This document shows, piece by piece, positions 6,800 through 61,844 of a stretch of 64,000 nucleotides of DNA; within the stretch, counting starts at the first letter, position 1; each line of letters starts with the position of its first letter. The DNA lies in the sequence record MK327935.1. One strand, given 5' to 3'. Source of the stretch: Escherichia phage vB_EcoM_G2494. The notes beneath the pieces were generated by a model. That model was given only the letters and a program-made list of their open reading frames with translations, searched no databases and had not been told where the DNA came from. A program made the translations under genes and the position numbers.

Positions 6800-9700
6800 T
6801 TAAAGCGCCTAGTGTAACTAGCTTGACAATAGAAAAATTGTCTGCTAATCAGGCGTATATCACATGGGATGACGTAGGCGAAAACTTCTTTTATTTTGTG
6901 GAGTTAGCCGAAACCAGAACACGAGACGGGGAGATCATCCCCGTCGATGAGTTAAGCTGGGTAAACCTGGGATATACTGCCGACCAAAACTGGTTTGAGG
7001 ATAAAAACCTTTTTCCAGAATATTATTACAAATTTCGTGTAGCAGTAGCCGCAGAAGGATTTGAACAAAGTAAATGGATTGAAACCGAAGAGTTTCAGAC
7101 ATTTAAAACAAACGCATATAATTTTTCTATGATGCGAGAGTTCAACCTTGCAAACGAGTTTATAAAGGAAAAATTTACATACGATAATCGAGAGTATGTC
7201 AAGTTTAATACCGACCTTATTCAAGCATCATTGATGAAGGAAGATTTTGTCTTTAGTCCTGAATATGCAAACATGACAAATATCTCAAACTACATTGTAG
7301 TTGATGAGAACTTTCATGAAATACAGGATCACATAGAAAAAGTTTGTATTGATATAAACCGCACTATGTTAGCGGAAATGAACGGTGTTTTGTACCTTTT
7401 CGAACGGTTCCAGCCGATTGTGAAAGTGTCAAATGATAAAGGTCAATCATGGAAAGCATACAAGGCTTTTAATGACCGTGTAGGAAATCCGGTTTCCCGC
7501 ACATGCGTTTATCAGTCTAAAACCACTACTTACGTTTTAGGATATGACCGAATCTTTTACGGACGACAAGCTAGCGATACTCGATGGAGCGCGGACGATG
7601 TTCGATTTAGTGATGATACGATCACTTTTGCAAAGGTTGGTGACGAGAACGATTTAGGCATTGACGTTGAGGTCTTTGGTGTATTTTCCAGATTAACAGG
7701 GGACACCACAAAATACGCCGAAGCTATGGCGTGCAGTGATGACTATTTGTGGGTTGGTGCTAAAGATGTTATTCGCCGGATTCGTCTTAAGAATACTCCA
7801 GTTGATACCGTACAGGGTTCGCCTACGTTTGGAGAAAAAATATTCGATCCTGATGTTATCCGAGTAACAGGAAATGATAAAGCTGTCATTCAGAAAATGG
7901 ATGTGATCGACGGTAAATTGCTTGTATTTGTTACTGGTGAAGTTAAACAGCGTTATCAAGATCCAACCAAACCAGAAAACGTTGTTCCGTCAGATGATGC
8001 GGGTGTATACTTAATAGGGAGTGATGGTCTGTCTTTTCAGAGAGTATTTGGCAACACTCCGCAGGAAAGGGAATATATTCAGCATGGGTTCAGTAATATG
8101 TCAACCAATGGTGATGAGGTGTTTATAAGCCATTATAATCATCACTTCGAAAGCATTTTACCTGATCCAGAAACTGCCGCGAAATATGAATTGGGCGAAG
8201 CTGTAAAATATTCTCAGGAGCCAACTTATCTAACTGATAAGAAAATACATCAAACTACTTTCAGAGCAAGTTATGATGATTTGCGTATTTGGGAGTTAGG
8301 ACCGCAAGCGTATTATAATGAGGCCGACTATACATGGATGCGTCGAAACGGTGTTCGTGTATGGATCACAAATGATAATCGCCCGTTGGTTGTTTATCCA
8401 GAAGTTGTCTATACGCAGGAAGTTGATACTTCCGGCATTCTTGATAAAAACAGAATTAACCGTGAAGTTTATGATAAAGGGACCGTGACCTGTTATCTTA
8501 ACAATGTTAAATTTGAAGGATTCAAACAATATGCATCCGGTGTAATGTTCCATAAAAACACGGGAGAGATCATTGGATTCTATCAATTTAATTATCGTGT
8601 TCGTGACCAAGTTGGTGTATATTGGAAACCTACAAATGTAGCATTTGTTGCTGAATTGCAAAATCAGGTTCGAGAGGTTCCCTGGGTTCCGGTTCACTAC
8701 GATCGAGAGCAAGATCCAGATTTGCGACCTTTACTGAATAAGATGACACCTGATAGCTTTTTACTTGAGAACGAAAATTTCAGAAAATTCTCTGAATATT
8801 ATCTGCAATTCTTAAGTGATGGTTCAGGAACATATTATAATAAACTAAAAAATCTGATTAAAAACAAATATCCACGCGAGCAAGATGCATATGAGTATCT
8901 TTGGTCAGAGATGAACAAACGAAACATCTATGCAGATAAAAACAAGCGAGATGCGGTAGTAAGATTCTTTGAATCCCGCAAATCAGATTTTTATTCCACT
9001 AAGGGCGTGGAGGCTTCTTATAAGTTCTTGTTTAAGTTACTTTATAATGAAGATGTGGAAATTGAGGTTGAATCACAAGCCGGACTAGAGTATGATATTG
9101 TTGTTAGTTCAACGAACATTGACGAGGATATCGTAGGTCGCACGATTTATACCCCGACCGGACGGGCTAACGTGACTTATCTTGAAAGGGAATATGAAGG
9201 TGGACGTCTACGCTGGCGAGTAACCATTCATAACCTGATCGGGCGGTTCGAAGAAGGTCAAGTGATCAAATCAGAGAAAACAGCGTTTGAAGGGATGATC
9301 CTTGTTGGTGTGCGTGGTAAAGAGTTGTTGAGTAGTTCAATCGACTATATCAACCGCTCACGAAGCCAATACACCATGAAGATTAAAAGTGCATTGCCAG
9401 TTTCGCGCTATGCAAATGATGTAATGCGATTCGTTCATCCTGTCGGCTTTGGGTTTATCGGTGTTACCCTGCTTACGATGTTCATTAACAGCGGGTTGAG
9501 CATGAAGCACACCGAGACGATAATTCAATCTCTGAAAAATTATAAGTTTGACAGCGGATTGCCTAGCGTGTATCCTGATCGGGTGGCAGACCTTGACGTT
9601 GACGGAAACATTAAGAAAGACCCACTAACAGGGAAACCATTATACTTAACGTCACCGACAATGGGCGAAGAGTTCCCCGTTCCTCCTGAATATGATCAGG

Positions 9701-9882
9701 AGAACAGCGAATTGTTCCACGGACTTAAAGCAAGCGAACGAAGATTTGCAATGAGTCCACTGTTTGACCAGTCGGCGGTAACATTCTCTATGTTCCGTGA
9801 ACTTGTAGATAAACGGTTGAAGGATAATATAGGGAATCCACGCGATCCGAAGAATCCGACACAGAGGAAAATTAATGGCTAA
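6796..9882 (+). CDS. 7: baseplate wedge initiator gp7
   Basis: 1028 aa, size and position as T4 gp7 (1032 aa). Confidence 0.85.
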   Translation: MIKAPSVTSLTIEKLSANQAYITWDDVGENFFYFVELAETRTRDGEIIPVDELSWVNLGYTADQNWFEDKNLFPEYYYKFRVAVAAEGFEQSKWIETEEFQTFKTNAYNFSMMREFNLANEFIKEKFTYDNREYVKFNTDLIQASLMKEDFVFSPEYANMTNISNYIVVDENFHEIQDHIEKVCIDINRTMLAEMNGVLYLFERFQPIVKVSNDKGQSWKAYKAFNDRVGNPVSRTCVYQSKTTTYVLGYDRIFYGRQASDTRWSADDVRFSDDTITFAKVGDENDLGIDVEVFGVFSRLTGDTTKYAEAMACSDDYLWVGAKDVIRRIRLKNTPVDTVQGSPTFGEKIFDPDVIRVTGNDKAVIQKMDVIDGKLLVFVTGEVKQRYQDPTKPENVVPSDDAGVYLIGSDGLSFQRVFGNTPQEREYIQHGFSNMSTNGDEVFISHYNHHFESILPDPETAAKYELGEAVKYSQEPTYLTDKKIHQTTFRASYDDLRIWELGPQAYYNEADYTWMRRNGVRVWITNDNRPLVVYPEVVYTQEVDTSGILDKNRINREVYDKGTVTCYLNNVKFEGFKQYASGVMFHKNTGEIIGFYQFNYRVRDQVGVYWKPTNVAFVAELQNQVREVPWVPVHYDREQDPDLRPLLNKMTPDSFLLENENFRKFSEYYLQFLSDGSGTYYNKLKNLIKNKYPREQDAYEYLWSEMNKRNIYADKNKRDAVVRFFESRKSDFYSTKGVEASYKFLFKLLYNEDVEIEVESQAGLEYDIVVSSTNIDEDIVGRTIYTPTGRANVTYLEREYEGGRLRWRVTIHNLIGRFEEGQVIKSEKTAFEGMILVGVRGKELLSSSIDYINRSRSQYTMKIKSALPVSRYANDVMRFVHPVGFGFIGVTLLTMFINSGLSMKHTETIIQSLKNYKFDSGLPSVYPDRVADLDVDGNIKKDPLTGKPLYLTSPTMGEEFPVPPEYDQENSELFHGLKASERRFAMSPLFDQSAVTFSMFRELVDKRLKDNIGNPRDPKNPTQRKING

Positions 9883-10870
9883 TGAAAATAGTGTGATCTA
9901 TCGCTCAATCATTACTAGTAAATTCAGAACGGAAAAACTTCTGAATTTCTATAATTCTGTAGGCGATGAGGCAAATCAAATTACAATTTATGGAACGTTT
10001 GGACGTTCGGAGCCGTGGTCAGAAAACGAAAAAGAGGTGGGCTTTGCCCCACCTTATCCGACCGATTCAACGGCTGGTGTTGTTGACATGTGGACCCATA
10101 TGATGGGGGCGGTTAAGATTAACAAATCACTTCTTGATGCGGTTATCCCTCGTAAAGATTGGGGTGATACCGGACAGGATAACCCGCGCACATTCTTTAT
10201 CAATGACATTGTTGTTGTCAACTCAGCACCATATAACCGAACTGATGTTGGTAGCGGCTGGATGGTGTATCGCGTAACCGATGTTCCTGATCGCGGTTAC
10301 TGCTCGATTTCAAGCATTGACGCTAAAGTAGAGTGTTTGAAGTTGGGCGGAAAGTGGACACCCACTCATGAATCAATTGCGCCACCTGTAGGAAAGGGCG
10401 ATTCTATTGATATGGGTGATGGGTATCGTTGGGAATATCTGTACACAATTCCACCTGATGCGGCGATCAACCGTTGCACCAATGAACATATTGTTGTACC
10501 GTTCCCCGATGAACTGCGACAAGATCCGGCGCGTTGGGGCTATGACAATGTGATCACATGGTATAATGACTATAATCTTCTTTATCGGCTGAAAGTAGTA
10601 ACTTTGCGTTTTCAGGCTTATATGGACTCTGCGCAATTCCCAACTACCGCGTTAGTGGGTAATACTGGTTTCCGTCAGTTAAGCATTATCCTTAACCCAT
10701 TGGAAAAGAAAGCACGCCCTAGCGATCCAGACGTTAAAGCGGTCAAAGATAAGTACCGACCGCAAGACTTAGAGCCACACTCAGGCGAAATGATCTACAT
10801 GGAAAACCGACAACCTATCGTTCGGTCATTAGATCAAACAGAACTTGTTTCTGTATTGTTTGAGTTCTAA
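9875..10870 (+). CDS. 8: baseplate wedge subunit gp8
   Basis: 331 aa; near-collinear with T4 gp8 (VIYRSIITSKFRTEKLLNFYNS, GEMIYMENRQPI). Confidence 0.9.
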   Translation: MANENSVIYRSIITSKFRTEKLLNFYNSVGDEANQITIYGTFGRSEPWSENEKEVGFAPPYPTDSTAGVVDMWTHMMGAVKINKSLLDAVIPRKDWGDTGQDNPRTFFINDIVVVNSAPYNRTDVGSGWMVYRVTDVPDRGYCSISSIDAKVECLKLGGKWTPTHESIAPPVGKGDSIDMGDGYRWEYLYTIPPDAAINRCTNEHIVVPFPDELRQDPARWGYDNVITWYNDYNLLYRLKVVTLRFQAYMDSAQFPTTALVGNTGFRQLSIILNPLEKKARPSDPDVKAVKDKYRPQDLEPHSGEMIYMENRQPIVRSLDQTELVSVLFEF

Positions 10871-10883
10871 GTGTATGATTTTA

Positions 10884-10913
10884 AAAGCCAATTCGAGAGA
10901 GTTGGCTTTTTCT
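10884..10913 (+). terminator. rho-independent terminator after gp8
   Basis: stem AAGCCAA/TTGGCTT followed by T-run. Confidence 0.6.
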
Positions 10914-10923
10914 ATTTTGAGTG

Positions 10924-10951
10924 TTGACAATCTTATTTGGTAAGGTATAAT
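10924..10951 (+). promoter_or_regulatory. sigma70-type early promoter
   Basis: GTGTTGACA, ~16-nt spacer, TATAAT, then ACACAC; same architecture as the minus-strand early promoters at 54-62 kb. Confidence 0.7.
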
Positions 10952-10980
10952 ACACACATCTAAACAACGGAGGATAAATT

Positions 10981-11238
10981 ATGGCACGTCGTAAATTTAC
11001 AGATAATTGTGAAGCAATTCAGGTATCCCCTTGCGGTTGGGATGTGATCGCGAACGGTGAAAAGATCGGAGAGATCATCGATCATACTCATTCATCATTA
11101 GCCGATTACACCGATGAACTGTGGGAGGGTATCAACTTCATGAATGACACTAAACGATTCAAGACTATCGACGAAGCTATCTATTTTGTGTATAATCCAA
11201 CTTTCGGTATGTGGGGAACTAGAAAATGGCACGCGTAA
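10981..11238 (+). CDS. hypothetical early protein
   Basis: 85 aa; strong SD GGAGGA; first gene of three-gene cassette; starts MAR. Confidence 0.5.
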   Translation: MARRKFTDNCEAIQVSPCGWDVIANGEKIGEIIDHTHSSLADYTDELWEGINFMNDTKRFKTIDEAIYFVYNPTFGMWGTRKWHA

Positions 11239-11558
11239 ATATTAAATTGCATTACACAATGAATAAAGCTAAGTTCCCAATGCAAAAGCATTACTATGGT
11301 CTACGTGCACAAGATCCTAAACTCTATGGTACTCATTGGTTTTGTAAACATGATAACCAATGGCACACATACGAAGAAATGCACGAGATGATGAAACAGG
11401 GTATTGAATTTAGTTATTCTAATTATGACCATCGTATAACTTGCATTCGAAAATTGAAACGATGGATTCGTAAGAATCCGCAATTTAAAAACTTTGTGTT
11501 CTTTATGTCTCATGTTTATTTGGGACATAGCGTTACCGTCACAGCAAAGGTTAAATAA
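11226..11558 (+). CDS. hypothetical early protein
   Basis: 110 aa; overlaps previous gene; starts MAR. Confidence 0.5.
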   Translation: MARVNIKLHYTMNKAKFPMQKHYYGLRAQDPKLYGTHWFCKHDNQWHTYEEMHEMMKQGIEFSYSNYDHRITCIRKLKRWIRKNPQFKNFVFFMSHVYLGHSVTVTAKVK

Positions 11559-12397
11559 TGGCACGACTTTCTAAACAAGAACAAAAATTACACGATCGGG
11601 CGATGGAGTTGATTAATTCAGATCGTCCATTGACATTTGAAGAAAAAGAATTTTGCTATAACAATTATCATGGCGATGGACTAGGTGGTTCCGGTGCATT
11701 CTTTACCCCAGAATGGCTTGCCTGGGATTTTACCATTGATGCACACTGCACCGGAAAAGTATTAGATCTTTGTGCGGGGATCGGTCGCTTATCTTTTTGT
11801 ATGTTACATCGTTGTAAGCCAGAAAAGATCGTATGCGTCGAACTCAATCCAGAATTTGCGCGGATTGGCAAGCGACTATTACCGGAGGCAGAATGGATCA
11901 CCAGCGATGTATTCGAATTTGAGTCAAACGAAAAATTCGATGTGGTGATCAGCAATCCACCTTTCGGTAAAATCAATACTACAGACACAAAGGATGTATT
12001 TGAATATACTGGCGGTGAGTTTGAATTTAAGGTTATGACGTTAGGCCAGAAGTTTGCCGATGTAGGTTATTTTATTGTTCCTGCTAGTTCCGCTGGGTTT
12101 GCTTATTCCGGTAGACCTTATTATGATGAATCAGTGAAGTCTAATAAATATCTAAAATGGAGCAAACAAACTGGTTTGGTGACTTACGCCGGATGTGGGA
12201 TCGATACATCAATCTATCGCGATGAATGGCATAGTACCAACGTTTTAACAGAAGTGGTTGAGGTTCGGTATTACGAGAAAGAAGCCGTAGAAGCGCCTAA
12301 ATCACGTCCTAACGAACAAATAGAAGAAAGTAAGGAGATCACCTTACCGAAACAGGAAAGCGAGTCTGGGACGCTCTCAGATTTGTTTGACATTTAA
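11558..12397 (+). CDS. gamma-class N6-adenine DNA methyltransferase (orphan)
   Basis: 279 aa; motif X GAFFTP, motif I VLDLCAGIGRLS, motif IV ISNPPFG in gamma order; TAATG start overlap with upstream gene. Confidence 0.65.
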   Translation: MARLSKQEQKLHDRAMELINSDRPLTFEEKEFCYNNYHGDGLGGSGAFFTPEWLAWDFTIDAHCTGKVLDLCAGIGRLSFCMLHRCKPEKIVCVELNPEFARIGKRLLPEAEWITSDVFEFESNEKFDVVISNPPFGKINTTDTKDVFEYTGGEFEFKVMTLGQKFADVGYFIVPASSAGFAYSGRPYYDESVKSNKYLKWSKQTGLVTYAGCGIDTSIYRDEWHSTNVLTEVVEVRYYEKEAVEAPKSRPNEQIEESKEITLPKQESESGTLSDLFDI

Positions 12398-12401
12398 TTA
12401 T

Positions 12402-12428
12402 AAGCCGTCCTTGTGGGCGGCTTTTTTG
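12402..12428 (+). terminator. rho-independent terminator after methyltransferase cassette
   Basis: GC hairpin AAGCCGTCC...GGGCGGCTT followed by TTTTTT. Confidence 0.6.
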
Positions 12429-12437
12429 TATGTATTT

Positions 12438-12445
12438 TATAAATA
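12438..12445 (+). promoter_or_regulatory. T4-type late promoter TATAAATA upstream of gp9
   Basis: exact TATAAATA ~28 nt upstream of ATG. Confidence 0.55.
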
Positions 12446-12472
12446 ATACATCATAACATGAGGAATTAAACA

Positions 12473-13327
12473 ATGGCACAAGTTCCAAAGAAAAGAATAG
12501 ACACAGGTACTGTCGGCAATCCATCGACTGGCGATATCTTATATGATGGCGGTAATAAAATTAACGATAACTTTGATTCAATATATGACGCATTTGCTGA
12601 TCAACGGTTTAAAGACGTAGACCACGGCGTAGGAAGAATGGTTATTCATGCAACCGGATACTATCAGAAACATCCACGTCAAAGCTACTCTGGGTCCGCT
12701 GTTGAGATTGGGAGTCTACACGATATCGATACAACTCAAGGCGCACTTATTGCTATTCTACCTAAAGCAAAGGTTGGTGAGGGTGTTGTATTCATAAATA
12801 GTAACGGTAGCTTTTCAACGACGACACCGCTCAATATTAGAACTCAAGCAGGTGATTCTATTAGCGGGTATTCCGGTGATGCTATAATAACACAACCATT
12901 TTCAAAAGTCACTGTTTGGTGTACTGCCGTTGAAGGTAGTCGCGTAACATGGCGATTGGGTATCGAAAGTATGTTTACCGATACAACAACGCCATTAGAT
13001 AAAACAGTTAACGTAACTGGAGTAGCAACAAACGTTGCTATTGCCGCAAAAACAGAATACGTTTCCATCAAATTATTAACTACCGCTAGCAATACATCCG
13101 GTTCAAAAATGCGTTCAAGTGAAACGCTACTGATGATTGATTCTAAAGCCGGAAAAGTTTATGCGACGGAATATGCAGTTTTGCAGAAGACAGAAGACGA
13201 ATTATACACGGTTCGTTATTTCATCGGTTCCGGCGATAAAGTATATGCAGAGTATAAGGCTACTGGCGAAAATATTCGTTTAGCAGTTAAAGCCGTAGAC
13301 ACTATTAAAATCGGGGTTGCTACATGA
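12473..13327 (+). CDS. 9: baseplate wedge / long tail fiber connector gp9
   Basis: 284 aa; strong similarity to T4 gp9 (IDTG..GN.STGDIL.DGGNKIN, HATGYYQKH, VFINSNGS, SIESMF, KIGVA). Confidence 0.9.
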   Translation: MAQVPKKRIDTGTVGNPSTGDILYDGGNKINDNFDSIYDAFADQRFKDVDHGVGRMVIHATGYYQKHPRQSYSGSAVEIGSLHDIDTTQGALIAILPKAKVGEGVVFINSNGSFSTTTPLNIRTQAGDSISGYSGDAIITQPFSKVTVWCTAVEGSRVTWRLGIESMFTDTTTPLDKTVNVTGVATNVAIAAKTEYVSIKLLTTASNTSGSKMRSSETLLMIDSKAGKVYATEYAVLQKTEDELYTVRYFIGSGDKVYAEYKATGENIRLAVKAVDTIKIGVAT

Positions 13328-15126
13328 AACAATTAATTAATATCGGTAACGTTGTTGATGACGGTACAGGTGATTATCTAAGAAAAGGCGGTCAAAAGAT
13401 TAATGACAACTTTTCTGAACTTTATACTAAGCTGGGGGATGGTGATATCCCTCATGCATCCGGCGCGTGGAAAACTCACACACAACCAGTATTAAAACCA
13501 AATTTTGGTGATGCATGGGCAATTAATACAACGAACAACGCTGTTTCTGTTGAATTGCCTAAAGGAAGCGCGAGTGATTACAATAAAACAATTAAACTTC
13601 GTGATGTTTGGCGCTCATGGGCTGCACATAACGTAACATTGAAGCCAGCACAAGGTGATACCATTAAGGGATCTCCAATCGACCGTGAGTTGTATAAAGA
13701 TTTTATGGATGTTGAACTGGTTTATTGTGCGCCTGGACGCTGGGAATATATCGAAAACAAGCGAGTTGACACGATCACCACGTCTGACCTAAGCACAGTA
13801 GCTAAGGAAGTTTATATTGCCACAGAAGGGCAAACAGATTTCCCTAATGTATTTGGTTCTAACACATATAACACTCGAAATGTTGAAGTATATTATCGAG
13901 GAAACCTTTTATATTATGGCAAGTCTTTTAGTAATGACTCTAACTACGGTTCAATTGGTGAGGATGGATCACTTGTTGAACTTGATGGCAAAAGCATAAA
14001 ACTTCGTTTTCCTTGTTCGGCTGGGGACACCGTTCAAATTATTACATATATGGACGGAATTGCATCATTCCGATCTAGTTATATCACACACACAATTAGA
14101 GTGTATGATACCGGAATGACAGCACTAGAAACTATTCCGGGTGAAGTGTGGGTAGGTGATTTATCGACGAAAAAAGAATTTACCAATGCTGATTTGGGAG
14201 TTAGTAAACGTGATATAATTAACCCAAATTCATTTGAGTTATTAATAAATGGCACTCAAATGATTAAAGCTGGTGATGCTGATCTTCCTTCGTTTGTTTG
14301 TGAAGGTGCTGACGGAGAAACCGAAGAGAGTTGCGCACTTGCTGGCGGTCAGTGGGTACAGTCTGGAGAAGATTATTCACTGGTATTTGATGAGAATAGC
14401 ATTGTAACAGGGATTAAATTAGCTAAAGCGTTGGACAATAGAGATACTATAACAATTCGTTGGTTTAATAACGATATCGGAACTCTATTAGAATGGGATG
14501 GTGTCGGCGGAATTAAAGAAAAAGCAGACAAGATTTATCTCAATAACGAAGACGAAGTTAATTTAACAAAACAAATTGAATATACAGACTTCCAGAATCC
14601 TAGTCAGAAAAACACTCGTCCGGCAGAAGAGTATTCAGGTCGAATTATGGATATATATTCACTGTTTGATATTTTTCATCCGGTCGGCACGATATACGAA
14701 AACGCACATAACCCAGCTAACCCAGCGACCTATATGGGGTTTGGTATCTGGGTTCGGTATGCGGAAGGAGAATTTCTTGCTGGTTGGTCTTCCGATGCCA
14801 GCGACCAGAATTTTGCATTAAACAATAACGATCTTGATATTCATGGACAACCTACACACACCGCTGGTGGTACTGGTGGTGAAGTTGCCTATCAAATCAA
14901 GAAAGATATGATTCCTGAATTACAATCCAGCGATCGTGTTTTGGTGAAAGACGATACAGGGTCAATTATCATTGGTGGCTGTCAAGTTGATCCTGATGCG
15001 GCAGGTCCAGCGTTTACGAAATATAGAGAGGATATCGTAAAAGTTAATTCTGGAAATGCTGATCCATCAATGATGGGCATTCTTCCTCCATATCGCACCG
15101 TTCATCGCTGGTTAAGGGTAGGTTAA
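13324..15126 (+). CDS. 10: baseplate wedge subunit and tail pin gp10
   Basis: 600 aa; N-terminal domain resembles gp9 N-terminus; size as T4 gp10. Confidence 0.8.
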   Translation: MKQLINIGNVVDDGTGDYLRKGGQKINDNFSELYTKLGDGDIPHASGAWKTHTQPVLKPNFGDAWAINTTNNAVSVELPKGSASDYNKTIKLRDVWRSWAAHNVTLKPAQGDTIKGSPIDRELYKDFMDVELVYCAPGRWEYIENKRVDTITTSDLSTVAKEVYIATEGQTDFPNVFGSNTYNTRNVEVYYRGNLLYYGKSFSNDSNYGSIGEDGSLVELDGKSIKLRFPCSAGDTVQIITYMDGIASFRSSYITHTIRVYDTGMTALETIPGEVWVGDLSTKKEFTNADLGVSKRDIINPNSFELLINGTQMIKAGDADLPSFVCEGADGETEESCALAGGQWVQSGEDYSLVFDENSIVTGIKLAKALDNRDTITIRWFNNDIGTLLEWDGVGGIKEKADKIYLNNEDEVNLTKQIEYTDFQNPSQKNTRPAEEYSGRIMDIYSLFDIFHPVGTIYENAHNPANPATYMGFGIWVRYAEGEFLAGWSSDASDQNFALNNNDLDIHGQPTHTAGGTGGEVAYQIKKDMIPELQSSDRVLVKDDTGSIIIGGCQVDPDAAGPAFTKYREDIVKVNSGNADPSMMGILPPYRTVHRWLRVG

Positions 15127-15782: not shown

Positions 15783-17186
15783 ATGAATAACACTATTAAT
15801 CACGTAAAAGACGATGCACAGTATGTTAAGTTTGACCCTACCGGAAATTGGCCTAGCAATATAAAAAACGTACAAGCGGCATTAGCCGCTATTCAGGGGT
15901 TTGCTATTGCAGGTCTTCCAACGGCAACCGAAGAAACAGCGGGTATTGCTGAAATTGCTACTCAAAAAGAAGTAGATGATGGGTTGGATGGAACTAAAAT
16001 TGTTACCCCAAAAACATTGGCTGTTAAGCTGTCAAGACCGGACGCAACAAAACTTGTCAAAGGGATCACTCGCTATGCTAATAACGATGAAGCTATGGGC
16101 GATACTCCAAATATTGCAATTGGTCCTGATACATTAACCCATGTATTCGAGAAGAAGAAGGCAACGGAAACCGTACAGGGTACAATTAAAATTTGTTCTA
16201 TGGATGCGGCAAAAATAGGTAGCGATGACACTATGGCAGTAACGCCTAAAAAGATGCACGCTGCGATTGCTCAGATTGTTCCTGGATTGATCCCAGAGCA
16301 AAATACCGCTTCCGAATCCCGTGAGGGTCTAGTTAGGCTGGCAACAAGCCAACAAACGCTTGCTGGTACTATCAGAGAAGGATTTGCCGTTAGCCCATAT
16401 GCATTTTCCAACGCAAGAGCCAATGAAAATCAGGCGGGTACTGTTAAAATTGCGTCATCCCAACAAATGATTGACGGTAATGACAACACAGTAGTAGTAT
16501 CAGCACAAAAATTTGCGAACACTAAAGCAACCACTGGACAATTCGGTGTTGTTAAGCTAACAGATAATCCCAGTTCCGGTGAAGCAAATGCTGCGTTATC
16601 TGCAAATGCTCGTGTATTGCCTCTAAGCGGTGGTGTCGTTACTGGTGATGTGTATCGTCATAGTGGAGGTGACGGAAACCAGTTTACCACTAAAAACGAA
16701 ATGGATGCATGGTGTATGCCAATTGGTGCAATTATTCTAACTGCATTCAATAGCAATGATCACGGCGCATTTAAAATTTGTAACGGTCAATGGTTAAATA
16801 AACACCAATATCCAGTATTATTTTCACGAATCGGTTTCACTTACGGCGGAGATGGCGGAGACAACTTTGCTCTACCCGATATGCGAGGGCTTGTTGCTAG
16901 AGGATGCGACCACGGTCGAGGACTAGACCCAGGTCGTGGATTTGGTACTTATCAAGACGACACCATGCAACATATGACAGGTAACTTCCCTGTAGCTAAC
17001 CGTTGGCGCGGTTGGACTGGTGGTGCATTTGCCATCACAGGCGGTCAATGGAGCACGAACTATAAAAACGGTGGTGGTGATGATTGGGGTAGTATTGTTA
17101 ACTTTGACAGCGCAAGACAGGTTAGAACGTCTGGCGAAACTCGCGTTAAAAGCCTTGCATTAAACTACATGATAAGGGTACAATAA
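15783..17186 (+). CDS. 12: short tail fiber gp12
   Basis: 467 aa; blocks shared with T4 gp12 (YVKFDP, LATSQ..AGTIREGFAVSPYAF, NFALPDMRGL, SLALNYMIRV). Confidence 0.85.
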   Translation: MNNTINHVKDDAQYVKFDPTGNWPSNIKNVQAALAAIQGFAIAGLPTATEETAGIAEIATQKEVDDGLDGTKIVTPKTLAVKLSRPDATKLVKGITRYANNDEAMGDTPNIAIGPDTLTHVFEKKKATETVQGTIKICSMDAAKIGSDDTMAVTPKKMHAAIAQIVPGLIPEQNTASESREGLVRLATSQQTLAGTIREGFAVSPYAFSNARANENQAGTVKIASSQQMIDGNDNTVVVSAQKFANTKATTGQFGVVKLTDNPSSGEANAALSANARVLPLSGGVVTGDVYRHSGGDGNQFTTKNEMDAWCMPIGAIILTAFNSNDHGAFKICNGQWLNKHQYPVLFSRIGFTYGGDGGDNFALPDMRGLVARGCDHGRGLDPGRGFGTYQDDTMQHMTGNFPVANRWRGWTGGAFAITGGQWSTNYKNGGGDDWGSIVNFDSARQVRTSGETRVKSLALNYMIRVQ

Positions 17187-18955
17187 TGATCGAACAGTTA
17201 AACATTCGAAAGATCCCTAACGTCGATGGTGTCCCTGGAGAGGGACAGCATTCTATTAGCTGGATTAAAAATGGTGAATGTCTAAGCGCAGCAACCACAG
17301 AAACAGGACACGAGGGGACGCTTAACCGCGCCCCTTATGCGATTCAAGAAAATATTGTTCGTCTGGATGAAAATTCTAAGACAACGGTAACAAAAGTTAA
17401 CGAAGTTGTTACAGCAGTTAATGATATTAAAACTACTTTAGGCGCGGTTGCTGATGGTAGTATTATTGATATTGTCAATCAAACTATTGCAAAGGTTGAG
17501 TCTGTAGAAGAAAATTTAGGAGAAACTTCAAGGACATTACAAACCACAGTAGATGAACTGGCAGAAACAGGAAAGAAAATTGGTGTTCGTCCGGCAGCAG
17601 ATCCGAGTACACGAACAATATATGATGATATTTCTTTCATCAAACAAGAATTGGGTGCTTTCCCTAACTTCACTATCAACGGTTCTCCAGATCCGGGTAG
17701 TTCAGGTTCCGGTATCAAATATCGAGTTATCCAGAATACGGAAGCATTAAACAACCACGATCAGCGAATCCGCCAACTAGAAAACGACTGGCAAGATTCT
17801 GACGTTGGAGAGCTAACAAAACAAGTTAACAAAATACGAAGCGAGCTAGGCGATACATCACTAGCAACACAGGACAATGTTTATCTTCGTCTTCGCACAA
17901 ACACTAGCAATATCGCTAGTATATCAAACGAAGTTCAGGAAGTAAAGAAAGCGATTCTATTTGAATCAATTCCTGATATCGGGACTAAAGTAACTAAGCT
18001 ACAATCTGATTATACACAGCTTAATGATGAAGTCAACGGCTTTGACGCTGGTATCCGTCCTCGTTTAACTCTTCTGGAAAATACGATTGGCAATCCTCAA
18101 GCCGCTGGAAGTATTGATTATCGATTGACTAATCAAGAACGGGAATTTGTAGATCTTAAATCTATTGTCGGTGTTAGTGGTGCTGATGGCCTACGTGGTG
18201 AGGTTGCACGAATCTCTAACACAGTTGGTACTGATAGTGAGCGTCATACTATCGCAGGTCGTCTAAAAATTGTAGAAAATACACAGGGACGACTAGAAGC
18301 TAGCGTACAGGATATCGAGCAAATGATCGGAGATCGAGATTCCGGTCTAACCGCCGGGGTTATTAAGCTGTCAAGCGACATGTACGGCAATCCAGAAGGA
18401 AGCACGCAGCTTGAACAAGATGGGGTCGTGAAAACTGTTAAGGAATTGAGCACATCAAATGCAAGCAAGGTAACAGACGTTCCTGATGATGGTTTCCATT
18501 ATCTACGTAAGCACGGGGAATGGGTTCAGGTCGCATGGGCGGCTGGTACATTTAAAAACACCGCTCAGATTGATATTACTCTCGACGGACAAGATCAATA
18601 CAAAGGAATCCCGCTAAACGATATGACCGAAGAAGTTCCTGCGCGTGGAATGGTTAAGAGCGAATCTCTTGTTACGGTTAACGACAAAGGCTTATTCCGT
18701 TGTGATTTCCGTTGTTCTGTACATGCGGCAAATAACGCTACTTTCGTAGTCGGTATTGCTAAAAATGGTCTGATTGTACATGAGGTACGAAATGGTCATT
18801 ATGGAACTGATGATTTAATTAGCTATTCTACCAGTGCTTTCCTAAATATTGAAAAGGGCGACCGGATCGATATTCGCATTAAGGGCGTATCCGAAGAAGC
18901 ATTAGCGCAACAGCTACAAATTAAAGAGTTCCTCTTTGGAATTTCTCCGGTATAA
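17186..18955 (+). CDS. wac: fibritin (wac) with ~130-aa extension beyond the foldon-like segment
   Basis: N-terminus SISWIKNGE as T4 fibritin; coiled-coil heptads; foldon-like HYLRKHGEWVQV followed by extra C-terminal domain. Confidence 0.8.
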   Translation: MIEQLNIRKIPNVDGVPGEGQHSISWIKNGECLSAATTETGHEGTLNRAPYAIQENIVRLDENSKTTVTKVNEVVTAVNDIKTTLGAVADGSIIDIVNQTIAKVESVEENLGETSRTLQTTVDELAETGKKIGVRPAADPSTRTIYDDISFIKQELGAFPNFTINGSPDPGSSGSGIKYRVIQNTEALNNHDQRIRQLENDWQDSDVGELTKQVNKIRSELGDTSLATQDNVYLRLRTNTSNIASISNEVQEVKKAILFESIPDIGTKVTKLQSDYTQLNDEVNGFDAGIRPRLTLLENTIGNPQAAGSIDYRLTNQEREFVDLKSIVGVSGADGLRGEVARISNTVGTDSERHTIAGRLKIVENTQGRLEASVQDIEQMIGDRDSGLTAGVIKLSSDMYGNPEGSTQLEQDGVVKTVKELSTSNASKVTDVPDDGFHYLRKHGEWVQVAWAAGTFKNTAQIDITLDGQDQYKGIPLNDMTEEVPARGMVKSESLVTVNDKGLFRCDFRCSVHAANNATFVVGIAKNGLIVHEVRNGHYGTDDLISYSTSAFLNIEKGDRIDIRIKGVSEEALAQQLQIKEFLFGISPV

Positions 18956-18984: not shown

Positions 18985-19001
18985 CGTTTATAGGTGATAT
19001 T

Positions 19002-19934
19002 ATGTCAGGATATGTAACCAATAACCCAAGAGAATTAAAAGACGCTATTCTGCGTCGTTTAGGCGCACCAGTAATTAACGTAGAAGTCACAGAAGACCAG
19101 ATTTACGATTGTATTCAGAGAGCACTAGAACTCTATGGGGAATATCATTTCGATGGTGTGAATAAAGGATATAAAGTATTTCGTGTTAGTGCAGAGCAAG
19201 CGCAACATGGGGTATTTGATTTAAGCGATTCTGGTGTATTCGCAGTAACTAAAATAATTCGAACAAACGTAGGTAGCGCGGCTACGATGGATGGCACTGC
19301 CGTTTATCCGTGGTTTACCGACTTTCTGTTGGGTTTAGCGGGTGTAAATGGCGGTTTAGGATCTGGCTGTAGTAAATTTTATGGTCCAAATGCAATGGGC
19401 GGTGATCTAGGATATTTCGAACAGCTTATGAGCTATCGAGCCACTATGCAAAATATGCTCAATCCGCTGCCAGACTATTGGTATAATAGCGCAAACGGAC
19501 AACTTAAGATTACAGGAAACTTCCGAGAAGGTGATCTCATTGTTGTTGAATTATATGTTAAAAGCTATATAGACGTTCCTGATATGATCGGCGCGGTTGC
19601 TGGTTATGCTCATGCAGGAGGATGTTCTACCGCTGGCGGGATTAGCGCCGTTTATGATAATCCAACTGCTGGTTTAAGCGGGATTGTTGCTGGAATGGGA
19701 CCGATCCGTGATAACAAGCAGGGCGCATATAATAACCGTTGGGTTAAAGACATGGCAACCGCTTTCACTAAGGAGGTTTGGGGGTCCATCATGGCTAAAC
19801 ATCAAGGTCTGCAATTACCCGGCGGTGTCACTGTTGATGGTATCCGAATCATTGAAGAAGCACGCGCCGACATTGAGAAATTGCGACAAGAACTAGAATT
19901 ATTAGATCCTCCGTTCGGCATCCTCATGATTTGA
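19002..19934 (+). CDS. 13: neck protein gp13
   Basis: 310 aa; highly similar to T4 gp13 ([62 protein letters not shown]). Confidence 0.9.
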
Positions 19935-19970
19935 TTTATTGGGGGAGTATTCCCCCATTTGGAGTAACAT

Positions 19971-20711
19971 ATGTTTAACAACACTCTTTTTGCTCGCCTT
20001 GAATCGCAGAAGGACTACGAGAATACACGACAAACAGAGATTCTTAATCCTTATGTGAACTTTCACAAATATACAAATACTCAGACGTTAGCCGACGTTA
20101 TGGTCGCCGAAGCTATTCAGATGCGAGGTGTAGAATTATATTACATCCCTCGTGAATTTGTCAAACCAGATATGATCTTTGGTGAGGATGTTCAAAGCAA
20201 ATTTACTAAAGCATGGAAATTTGCGGCTTATATTAACTCATTTGATGGGTATGAAGGAGCGGGTAATTTCTTCTCTAGTTTCGGGTATCAAGCTAATGAT
20301 GAACTAACTTTTACGGTTAACCCCAACCTATTCAAGCATCAAGTAGATGATCAAGAGCCAAAATCAGGTGACTTAATTTATATTCCAATGAGTAATGATC
20401 TCTTTGAAATTAATTACGTCGAGCCATATCAGCCGTTTTTTCAGGCTGGAAAAAATGCCATGCGTAAAATTATTGCAGAGAAATTCGTGTATAGCGGTGA
20501 GGAATTGCGACCAGAATTACAACGCAATGAGGGAATTAATGTTGATGAGTTTGCGGATCTGGATCTTGCACCGATCACTAATCTGGACGGGTTAACAGAT
20601 ATCAACTTAGATCAGTACAAAGAAGATAAGCAATTCAGAAGCGAAGGACAAGATTTTATTGATCCGTTTGATCCTATTAATGGCAAGGGTTCACCTTTCG
20701 CCGATTTTTGA
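19971..20711 (+). CDS. 14: neck protein gp14
   Basis: 246 aa, position and size. Confidence 0.7.
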
Positions 20712-54217: not shown

Positions 54218-54246
54218 TATTATAGGGGATCGATGATCCCCTGTCA
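54218..54246 (-). promoter_or_regulatory. sigma70-type early promoter with palindromic spacer
   Basis: TTGACA-ggggatcatcgatcccc-TATAAT on minus strand. Confidence 0.65.
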
Positions 54247-54255
54247 ACAACTTTT

Positions 54256-56351: not shown

Positions 56352-56380
56352 ATTGTAGGGGAGTTATCCTCCCCTGTCAA
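56352..56380 (-). promoter_or_regulatory. sigma70-type early promoter with palindromic spacer
   Basis: TTGACA-ggggaggataactcccc-TACAAT on minus strand. Confidence 0.6.
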
Positions 56381-56394
56381 CACTTTTTATAAAA

Positions 56395-56595: not shown

Positions 56596-56624
56596 ATTAT
56601 AGGGGATCTCCCGATCCCCGTCAA
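56596..56624 (-). promoter_or_regulatory. sigma70-type early promoter with palindromic spacer
   Basis: TTGACG-gggatcgggagatcccc-TATAAT on minus strand. Confidence 0.6.
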
Positions 56625-56637
56625 CAACTTTTTAAAA

Positions 56638-61806: not shown

Positions 61807-61836
61807 ATTATAGGGGAGTTTAACCTCCCCTGTCAA
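61807..61836 (-). promoter_or_regulatory. sigma70-type early promoter with palindromic spacer
   Basis: TTGACA-ggggaggttaaactcccc-TATAAT on minus strand. Confidence 0.6.
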
Positions 61837-61844
61837 CAACTTTT

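Follow-up and report, generated by a model that had tools for sequence, protein, structure and literature searches.

Clamp partners and related phage systems

Sliding clamps serve to recruit a range of proteins, including polymerases, repair enzymes, transposases and, in T4, late-transcription factors. The subject of the present analysis is a candidate addition to these partners, a methyltransferase of 279 amino acids (aa) that is encoded by the last gene of a three-gene cassette between baseplate genes 8 and 9 of Escherichia phage vB_EcoM_G2494 (sequence record MK327935.1; the window is the whole stretch of 64,000 nucleotides (nt) that was analysed). The best explanation of this locus, and one that we consider probable, is that it forms an insulated early unit whose γ-class methyltransferase is tethered to the gp45 sliding clamp and methylates phage DNA. 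In T4 and RB69 the C-terminal peptide of the polymerase reportedly binds the gp45 clamp. Two further partners, gp33 and gp55, bind gp45 via C-terminal LDFL-type motifs (PMC9690074). The DNA polymerase gp43, gp33 and gp55 resemble the cassette enzyme in having a hydrophobic and acidic motif at the extreme C-terminus after a flexible segment, but they are replication and transcription factors and no methyltransferase was found among gp45 partners in the literature searched. The nearest functional parallel is eukaryotic DNMT1 with PCNA, in which a maintenance DNA methyltransferase carries a short clamp-binding peptide, a PIP-type motif, on a flexible segment that couples methylation to newly replicated DNA (PMC9690074). 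DNMT1 is, however, a large C5-cytosine enzyme with its motif in the N-terminal region, whereas the cassette enzyme is a small protein, probably of the γ-class, with its motif at the extreme C-terminus, and the clamp would be phage gp45 (or, in relatives, the bacterial β clamp).

Among phage-encoded methyltransferases the Dam enzymes of T4 and RB49 are similar in that they have no cognate nuclease and are presumed to protect against restriction. A dam gene is present in the same genome and the cassette enzyme is therefore a second methyltransferase of this phage. Dam belongs to another class, has GATC specificity and bears no clamp-type tail (Dam of phage JSE ends ...EVYVTNVD). The nearest structural relatives of the cassette enzyme are the γ-class N6-adenine DNA methyltransferases, which include type I HsdM, M.TaqI, the Eco57I/MmeI-type proteins and lmo1582/YtxK-like proteins. 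Unlike these, the cassette enzyme has neither a specificity subunit encoded separately nor a large domain for target recognition, its chain extends for only about 100 residues beyond the NPPF motif, and its sequence similarity to any solved structure is marginal.

As a genomic arrangement the cassette comes nearest to the PeSL and ORFan cassettes of RB49 and phi1 (Arbiol et al., 2010; PMC2839356) and the morons of temperate phages, in that a consensus σ70 early promoter joined to a stem-loop terminator drives the accessory genes and the insert separates two genes that adjoin each other in related phages. As in a PeSL, a terminator (10883-10910) is joined to a promoter, and lies 13 nt upstream of the TTGACA at 10924. 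In contrast to the PeSL cassettes, the cassette is situated in a conserved virion module (the gp6-gp12 baseplate block) and not in a hyperplastic region flanked by PeSLs, its stem-loop is upstream of the -35 element whereas the other PeSLs of the window have the stem-loop inside the spacer, and it is bounded on the 3' side by a simple terminator and then a late promoter, without an early promoter. It also differs from both PeSL cassettes and morons in being fixed in its genus and compositionally ordinary.

The C-terminal tail of the methyltransferase

The region containing the cassette (bases 10800-12520) is 99.9% identical to phage FL20 and matches 58 phage records at a DNA identity of at least 90%, all of them of Krischvirus type. 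The window is a genome segment of Krischvirus, the RB49-like ‘pseudo-T-even’ coliphages. The methyltransferase gene (11558..12397, + strand; phrog_3820) can be divided into three parts. A catalytic core (aa 1-240, 11558..12277) comprises N-terminal helices, the motifs FFTP, VLDLCAGIG and NPPF, and a small C-terminal subdomain. This is followed by an acidic linker of 31 residues that is predicted to be disordered (aa 241-271, 12278..12370; pLDDT 46-61) and by a terminal peptide, TLSDLFDI, which with the stop codon occupies 12371..12397 and which, from its likeness to the tail of gp43, is a putative gp45-binding motif. Linker and terminal motif together (aa 241-279) have a pI of 4.4.

The methyltransferase ends ...GTLSDLFDI and gp43 of phage JSE ends ...ASLTDLFDI, in both cases directly before the stop codon. 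Six of the last eight residues are thus identical to those of Krischvirus gp43, including the final DLFDI, with the other two representing a conservative S/T swap. The gp43 tail region is itself at least 99% identical in 58 Krischvirus records, and the corresponding position to Krischvirus SLTDLFDI in the T4-type phage RB3 is occupied by SLDFLFG. Within Krischvirus the linker of the methyltransferase drifts (PKQESES, PEQETAS, PEDKSPS) while SGTLSDLFDI stays constant, and a 66%-identical relative (P0002) has a wholly different linker yet ends GTLTDLFDI. The enzyme therefore carries an extreme C-terminal peptide like that of its cognate polymerase on a flexible linker, as do the known gp45 partners. 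The bacterial β-clamp pentapeptide QL[SD]LF is absent, TLSDLF lacking the Q and having one extra residue. A scan for L-x(1,2)-[LFM]-F or LDxF within the last ten residues of 222 Krischvirus open reading frames (ORFs), which is most of the proteome, matched gp43, gp55 and the methyltransferase only; in JSE, gp55 ends SLDQFYEIEN and gp33 ends TNTLDI. We infer from these comparisons that TLSDLFDI mimics the clamp-binding peptide of gp43, and by virtue of this mimicry the enzyme would dock on gp45. No bacterial or phage methyltransferase with a clamp-binding motif was found in the literature searched, which was incomplete such that a prior description is possible.

Gene 43 of JSE (L010) is annotated as two coding sequences, 17062-18468 and 18996-20204, separated by a gap of approximately 530 nt; plasticity of the g43 locus has likewise been remarked upon in the work that described PeSLs (PMC2839356).

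Class, fold and distribution of the methyltransferase

The motifs of the methyltransferase occur in γ-class order, with motif X (FFTP) at aa 48-51, motif I (VLDLCAGIG) at 68-76 and motif IV (NPPF) at 133-136, and across 26 homologues the residues of FFTP, D/ELCAGIG and NPPF show little or no variation. The AlphaFold model has a mean pLDDT of 81.8, with a core that is well defined to approximately residue 240 and a disordered tail. The catalytic domain of this predicted structure has an HsdM/TaqI-like fold, and its longest structural alignments are to DNA methyltransferases. A sequence profile search of the PDB gave weak matches only, to the S-adenosylmethionine (SAM)-binding core. The initial annotation of the window, made from the sequence without database searches, had recognised γ-class amino-methyltransferase motifs in the third gene, and both the motifs and the fold bear this out. 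Motifs and model together favour, but do not prove, a γ-class DNA adenine methyltransferase, and the protein is most likely an enzyme of this kind, with DNA as its presumed substrate and N6 of adenine as the presumed position of methylation.

All members of the family found are encoded by phages or prophages. Its description as an orphan methyltransferase also holds, since no nuclease partner was seen at this locus and no member stands beside a nuclease in the relatives' loci examined. Homologues of 42-50% identity are encoded by Slopekvirus, Pseudotevenvirus, Aeromonas T4-like phages, jumbo phages and the Sinorhizobium phage phiM12, and in enterobacterial prophages homologues of 53-61% identity are encoded by the outermost gene at the prophage edge. 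The linker and extension are missing from the prophage homologues and present in the T4-like versions. No member of the family was detected in approximately 600 Escherichia T-even-type records that have a gp9 homologue. In prophages of Citrobacter freundii and Mangrovibacter (L002-L006) the gene, at 8001-8726, encodes tail-less homologues of 238-241 aa at the junction between prophage and chromosome, a classic moron position. The C. freundii prophage homologue is very widespread, one exact sequence being present on 887 contigs.

Clamp-type tails in the wider family

A search of 1.84 billion representative proteins returned 354 clusters at E <1e-30, of which the best 150 were analysed for tails. 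Among these 150 representatives the motif Q[LFMI]x[LFMI]F was present within the last 12 aa in 18, against 0.05 expected, and [LM]F within the last 12 aa in 50, against 4.1 expected. Nearly all of the motif-bearing representatives are members that possess the extension. In a set of 80 IMG/VR loci, Q-x-x-[LFMI]-F was present within the last 12 aa of 27 of 73 methyltransferases and of only five of 1651 neighbouring ORFs (Fisher p = 7e-35). Endings seen in relatives include QLSLFDAA, QLDLFG.AA and QLDLFGG as well as QLTLF and QLALF placed immediately before the stop codon. QL(S/D)LF is the motif by which proteins bind the bacterial β clamp, DnaN (PMC9690074).

Where gp43 and the methyltransferase of the same phage can be compared, the tails are SLNDLFGDW and KSDLFTFTIE in KP15 (common core DLF), SLNTLFGDDW and QNLFTFTIE in CfP1 (common core LF), and SLSDLFDF and SATFDFRIE in a further phage locus, L044 (common core FDF). 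Phage phiM12 was considered as an additional point of covariation and was dropped, as its methyltransferase has no tail.

The genes that surround the methyltransferase in relatives are also informative. In KP15 and CfP1 it lies between the gp41 helicase and the gp61 primase, and at another locus (L072) it immediately follows the gene for a DnaB helicase. In a metagenomic phage replication module (L087 4132-15626) a three-domain β clamp is encoded, and an MT-A70 methyltransferase gene is immediately upstream of the family member. We lean slightly towards regarding phrog_3820 as a widespread group of clamp-riding phage DNA methyltransferases in which the C-terminal peptide has repeatedly been swapped to fit the clamp of the phage. 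The swapped tails would be of gp45 type, copying gp43, in T4-like phages and QLxLF for DnaN-type clamps elsewhere, with none in the copies at prophage edges. On this view the family would provide a prokaryotic and viral counterpart of DNMT1-PCNA and a new class of gp45 partner, and protective methylation would be processive and coupled to replication.

The metagenomic module also encodes a helicase of 575 aa with an SSB-like tail (...LDDDIPF), a PrimPol/AAA_25 protein and a PAS/HWE histidine kinase. At two loci (L072 7891-8562 and L074 9098-9772) proteins of approximately 223 aa are encoded a short distance ahead of the gene for the DnaB helicase (L072) or for the methyltransferase (L074). These have no Pfam match and end QGEMFA and QGELFSGEAA, respectively, which are like clamp motifs, and from these endings they may be further clamp-binding replication proteins.

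A proposed role in replication-coupled methylation

In the mechanism that we propose, host σ70 RNA polymerase would transcribe the insulated cassette right after infection. ORF1 would be translated from its strong ribosome-binding site, with ORF2 and the methyltransferase following by translational coupling, so that the methyltransferase would accumulate before the onset of replication. The flexible acidic linker would then present TLSDLFDI to gp45 clamps that are loaded on phage DNA undergoing replication. Once docked there, the enzyme would methylate adenines in the nascent duplex during or just after synthesis. The benefit would be fast and complete protective methylation of a genome in which, in RB49, the cytosines are unmodified. 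An anti-restriction role of this kind is plausible. Such protection would be expected to matter most in T4-like lineages without hydroxymethylcytosine; Krischvirus, Slopekvirus and Pseudotevenvirus all have members of the family.

If correct, this proposal would explain how full methylation is reached before packaging or restriction in a phage that replicates within minutes. The clients of gp45, a system already studied in depth, would be joined by a further one, and the tail of the methyltransferase would offer a simple sequence rule for reading the clamp type of a phage. Therapy cocktails make use of Krischvirus, Slopekvirus and Pseudotevenvirus phages, and a third methyltransferase that has been overlooked would bear on the host range of such phages against restriction systems. 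Studies of KP15 and KP27 considered the unexplained resistance of KP27 DNA to restriction, named Dam and Dcm as the only methyltransferases, and reported finding none besides these (PMC3620542, PMC5219037). The gene KP15_25 (L008 3001-3777), located between gp41 and gp61, belongs to the phrog_3820 methyltransferase family.

A 2026 study reported that Krischvirus SAP has cytosines modified via an unidentified pathway, the cytosines of TB34, which is 99.96% identical, being canonical (PMC13390438). SAP carries the cassette methyltransferase at 96% identity. A link between this enzyme and the SAP modification was set aside because 5-substituted cytosines are not the expected product of an NPPF amino-methyltransferase and because the gene is also present in RB49, which is treated as unmodified.

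Weighing the evidence

Several observations weigh against the proposed clamp-tethered DNA methyltransferase, and the first group of these concerns the substrate. The generic Pfam domain MTS (38.6 bits, 1e-9) outscores the DNA-methyltransferase models, of which Eco57I (PF07669) is a marginal match over aa 117-171 only (26.5 bits against a cut-off of 25.3) and N6_Mtase (PF02384) is sub-threshold (16.3 bits against 20.4). The best sequence-profile matches are to generic or to RNA and protein methyltransferases (the MTS domain, PrmC and RsmC), and the matches are restricted to the SAM-binding core, over which DNA and RNA methyltransferases are not told apart. No biochemistry or methylome of any family member was found in the literature searched, and that literature treats RB49 DNA as unmodified, though with cytosines meant. 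Early expression of the cassette is, moreover, deduced from the promoter sequence. The enzyme might on this view be an RNA or protein methyltransferase, either RsmC/RsmD/METTL5-like (m2G or m6A in rRNA) or PrmC-like, that remodels host translation early in infection, but we judge this quite improbable. Several records in GenBank label the protein as PrmC/HemK, the release-factor glutamine methyltransferase. This assignment was rejected, as the match to TIGR03534 scores 37.6 bits against a cut-off of 199.1 and covers aa 64-137 only; in addition, the motif is NPPF and not the NPPY of PrmC, and where PrmC has an N-terminal domain for release-factor binding this protein has a helical segment peculiar to its own family, with FFTP. 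An rRNA methyltransferase of the RsmC/RsmD/METTL5 type was rejected in the same way, with RsmC (NF007023) scoring 29.2 bits against 295 and only the domain-level MTS match passing. The structural alignment to METTL5 covers about 171 residues of the core, the longest alignments being those to DNA methyltransferases, and FFTP, the γ-class motif X, is present. Clamp-binding tails and replication-module neighbours make sense only with a DNA substrate, and nothing was found to show an RNA or protein substrate for any member.

The second group concerns the tail. Outside Krischvirus the tails of gp43 and the methyltransferase have only a short LF or FDF core in common, and tail-less relatives are numerous (enterobacterial prophages, phiM12, Aeromonas phages and jumbo phages), from which it follows that tethering is optional. 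Within Krischvirus the match could reflect local recombination with gene 43 and not selection: the last 14 nt of the two genes are identical, as are 21 of the last 30, a comparison which fits both transfer from gene 43 and convergence. Were the tail a by-product of such recombination, or a chance likeness, the protein would be an untethered orphan DNA methyltransferase of moron type, as in the initial annotation, and the tail would have no clamp role. The tail-less homologues, which are presumably functional, and the identical 14 nt, which would fit a transferred patch, are in keeping with this explanation. We nevertheless think it unlikely, given that the terminal peptide stays constant against a changing linker and is retained in the 66%-identical relative, and that independent lineages bear different clamp-type motifs that are strongly enriched over neighbouring ORFs. 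A patch transferred from gene 43 would in any case still bring with it the clamp-binding peptide of the polymerase, and hence its function.

A further possibility is that the tail is mainly regulatory and that by occupying the partner pocket of gp45 it modulates replication or gp45-dependent late transcription, methylation being secondary or lost. As gp45 is common to gp43, gp33 and gp55, an abundant early competitor carrying the tail of the polymerase could shift the timing of late transcription. The catalytic motifs are, however, invariant across the family with no degeneration seen, and the tail-less members keep the enzyme core, which indicates that methyltransferase activity is under selection. 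A mainly regulatory tail is accordingly the explanation in which we place least belief, and tethering of an active DNA methyltransferase to gp45 is preferred.

Organisation of the cassette and its insertion between gp8 and gp9

The cassette is flanked by two late genes and all of the features described here are on the + strand. To the left is the baseplate wedge subunit gp8 (9875..10870), a 331-aa ORF whose aligned part bears the annotation gene 8 in JSE and further Krischvirus phages. It is followed by an intrinsic terminator (10883..10918, hairpin 10883-10910) with a 12-bp stem, a 4-nt loop and a T-rich tail. The cassette begins with an early σ70-type promoter (10924..10951) and ORF1 (10981..11238; phrog_16603), which encodes an acidic protein of 85 aa (pI 5.2) behind a strong Shine-Dalgarno sequence, GGAGG, at 10969-10973. 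ORF2 (11226..11558; phrog_12630) overlaps ORF1 by 13 nt and encodes a basic protein of 110 aa (pI 9.9), and is itself overlapped by the methyltransferase gene at TAATG. An intrinsic terminator closes the cassette (12402..12429, stem 12402-12423), consisting of a 9-bp stem with six GC pairs and then TTTTTTG. Gene 9 is preceded by a T4-type late promoter, TATAAATA, at 12438..12445 and encodes the baseplate wedge/tail-fibre connector gp9 (12473..13327; a 284-aa ORF annotated as gene 9). The promoter, three genes and terminator that the initial annotation had placed between gp8 and gp9 are all present; it did not include the terminator after gp8, the late promoter before gp9 or the C-terminal tail of the methyltransferase. 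An Rfam scan of 10700-12600 gave one sub-threshold chance match, to the 3' end of gp8 and its terminator (24 bits against a gathering threshold of 80.4).

In other lineages the gap between gp8 and gp9 is merely 9-67 nt, as seen in Tequatrovirus RB3, Slopekvirus KP15, Tulanevirus Aes508 and Yersinia phage MHG19. These four lineages are in line with the earlier statement that T4 has nothing between genes 8 and 9, and the same comparison of junctions shows that conservation of the cassette at this position is limited to Krischvirus. In RB3 and MHG19 the gap holds a hairpin and T-run directly after gp8 and then TATAAATA, the same late promoter element that precedes gp9 here. The cassette is thus a self-contained insert exactly between the ancestral gp8 terminator and the gene 9 late promoter, and its occupation of a pre-existing operon boundary explains how it is tolerated inside the baseplate cluster.

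Each of the approximately 58 Krischvirus records carries the cassette, which is thus fixed in the genus, the methyltransferase being at least 95% identical in 58, the Krischvirus-type gp43 tail region also being present in 58 and Krischvirus-type gp9 in 57. Its GC content of 0.36-0.42 compares with 0.37-0.49 in the flanks, with no step change at the borders, and a composition scan of cassette against flanks showed no GC or skew anomaly. Genus-wide fixation and ordinary composition rule out a recent foreign acquisition. The suggestion of a moron-type acquisition is therefore sustained in part: the unit has its own promoter and terminator and its flanking genes are adjacent in relatives, but it is neither recent nor sporadic and its composition is ordinary. 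Listings going back to 2006 include the methyltransferase gene under the name RB49ORF143w, ‘methyltransferase small domain’, and its RefSeq annotation is DNA methyltransferase. As the unit is fixed in Krischvirus and its methyltransferase already annotated, the cassette itself is known and ordinary, though no characterisation of it was found in the literature searched. What is new is the proposed clamp-tether reading of the methyltransferase tail.

Origin of the cassette genes

ORF1 and ORF2 have no Pfam or NCBIfam match and belong only to PHROGs families without assigned function. Homologues of ORF1, and of the two together, are confined to Krischvirus and the unrelated rV5-like group Vequintavirus, and only five protein clusters are related to ORF2, for which the AF2 model has a pLDDT of 62. 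In Vequintavirus FV3 (L007 3256-3830) the pair is adjacent with the same 13-nt overlap, ...AAATGGCACATGTAA..., in an early region of small genes and without the methyltransferase. The occurrence of the pair and its overlap in both groups indicates horizontal exchange of a two-gene module. Conversely, the methyltransferase family occurs without ORF1 or ORF2 in KP15, CfP1, prophages and other phages, often inside replication modules. Because each part occurs elsewhere without the other, the cassette can be regarded as two separable modules joined into a composite. For the same reason ORF1 and ORF2 are unlikely to be partners of the methyltransferase.

Two alleles of ORF2 are found in Krischvirus, one at least 95% identical in 38 records and the other approximately 72% identical in 24 records including RB49. 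ORF1 and the methyltransferase, which flank this variable gene, remain at least 96% identical, and ORF2 looks like a localised gene-replacement hotspot inside the cassette.

All three genes start alike, as had been noted, each beginning ATGGCACG. GCA is the second codon of six of the 83 genes in the window by a rough gene call, and an MAR start is confined to the cassette genes. A duplicated initiation region had been proposed to account for this similarity. The methyltransferase family starts MA[KR] in all lineages, however, and the ORF2 homologue of FV3 starts ATGGCACAT (ATGGCAC, with the same 13-nt overlap), although FV3 ORF1 starts MSL. MA[KR] is therefore ancestral in the methyltransferase family, and ATGGCAC and the overlap are ancestral in the Vequintavirus module. 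The shared starts were therefore inherited separately and predate assembly of the cassette, and a local duplication was rejected.

Promoters and transcription signals in the window

The promoter of the cassette had been described as near-consensus and proves to be perfect at 12 of 12 positions. It consists of TTGACA (10924-10929), a 16-nt spacer and TATAAT (10946-10951), and is the sole 12/12 σ70 match within 9500-13500. It is also one of nine sites in the window that conform to GTTGAC-N16-19-TAYAAT, against 0.14 expected. The G that precedes its TTGACA (GTTGACA) corresponds to the G at -33, before TTGAC, that is typical of the RB49 early promoter consensus (PMC1524935).

The late promoter element TATAAATA also occurs nine times in the window (at 818, 12438, 26011, 31604, 32457, 34212, 34772, 40452 and 44062), a copy number that is not enriched over the 6.3 expected. 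All nine sites are on the + strand, and those checked (for example 12438, 26011, 31604, 32457, 40452 and 44062) are directly upstream of the next + strand ORF. This strand bias and the position before late genes suggest that most of the sites are functional.

Early promoters on the minus strand at 54219-54248, 56352-56381, 56596-56625 and 61807-61837 have a G4-C4 palindromic stem-loop between the -35 and -10 elements, as for example in GTTGACAGGGGATCATCGATCCCCTATAAT. These stem-loop-in-spacer promoters match the PeSL promoter-terminator cassettes published for RB49 and phi1 (PMC2839356).

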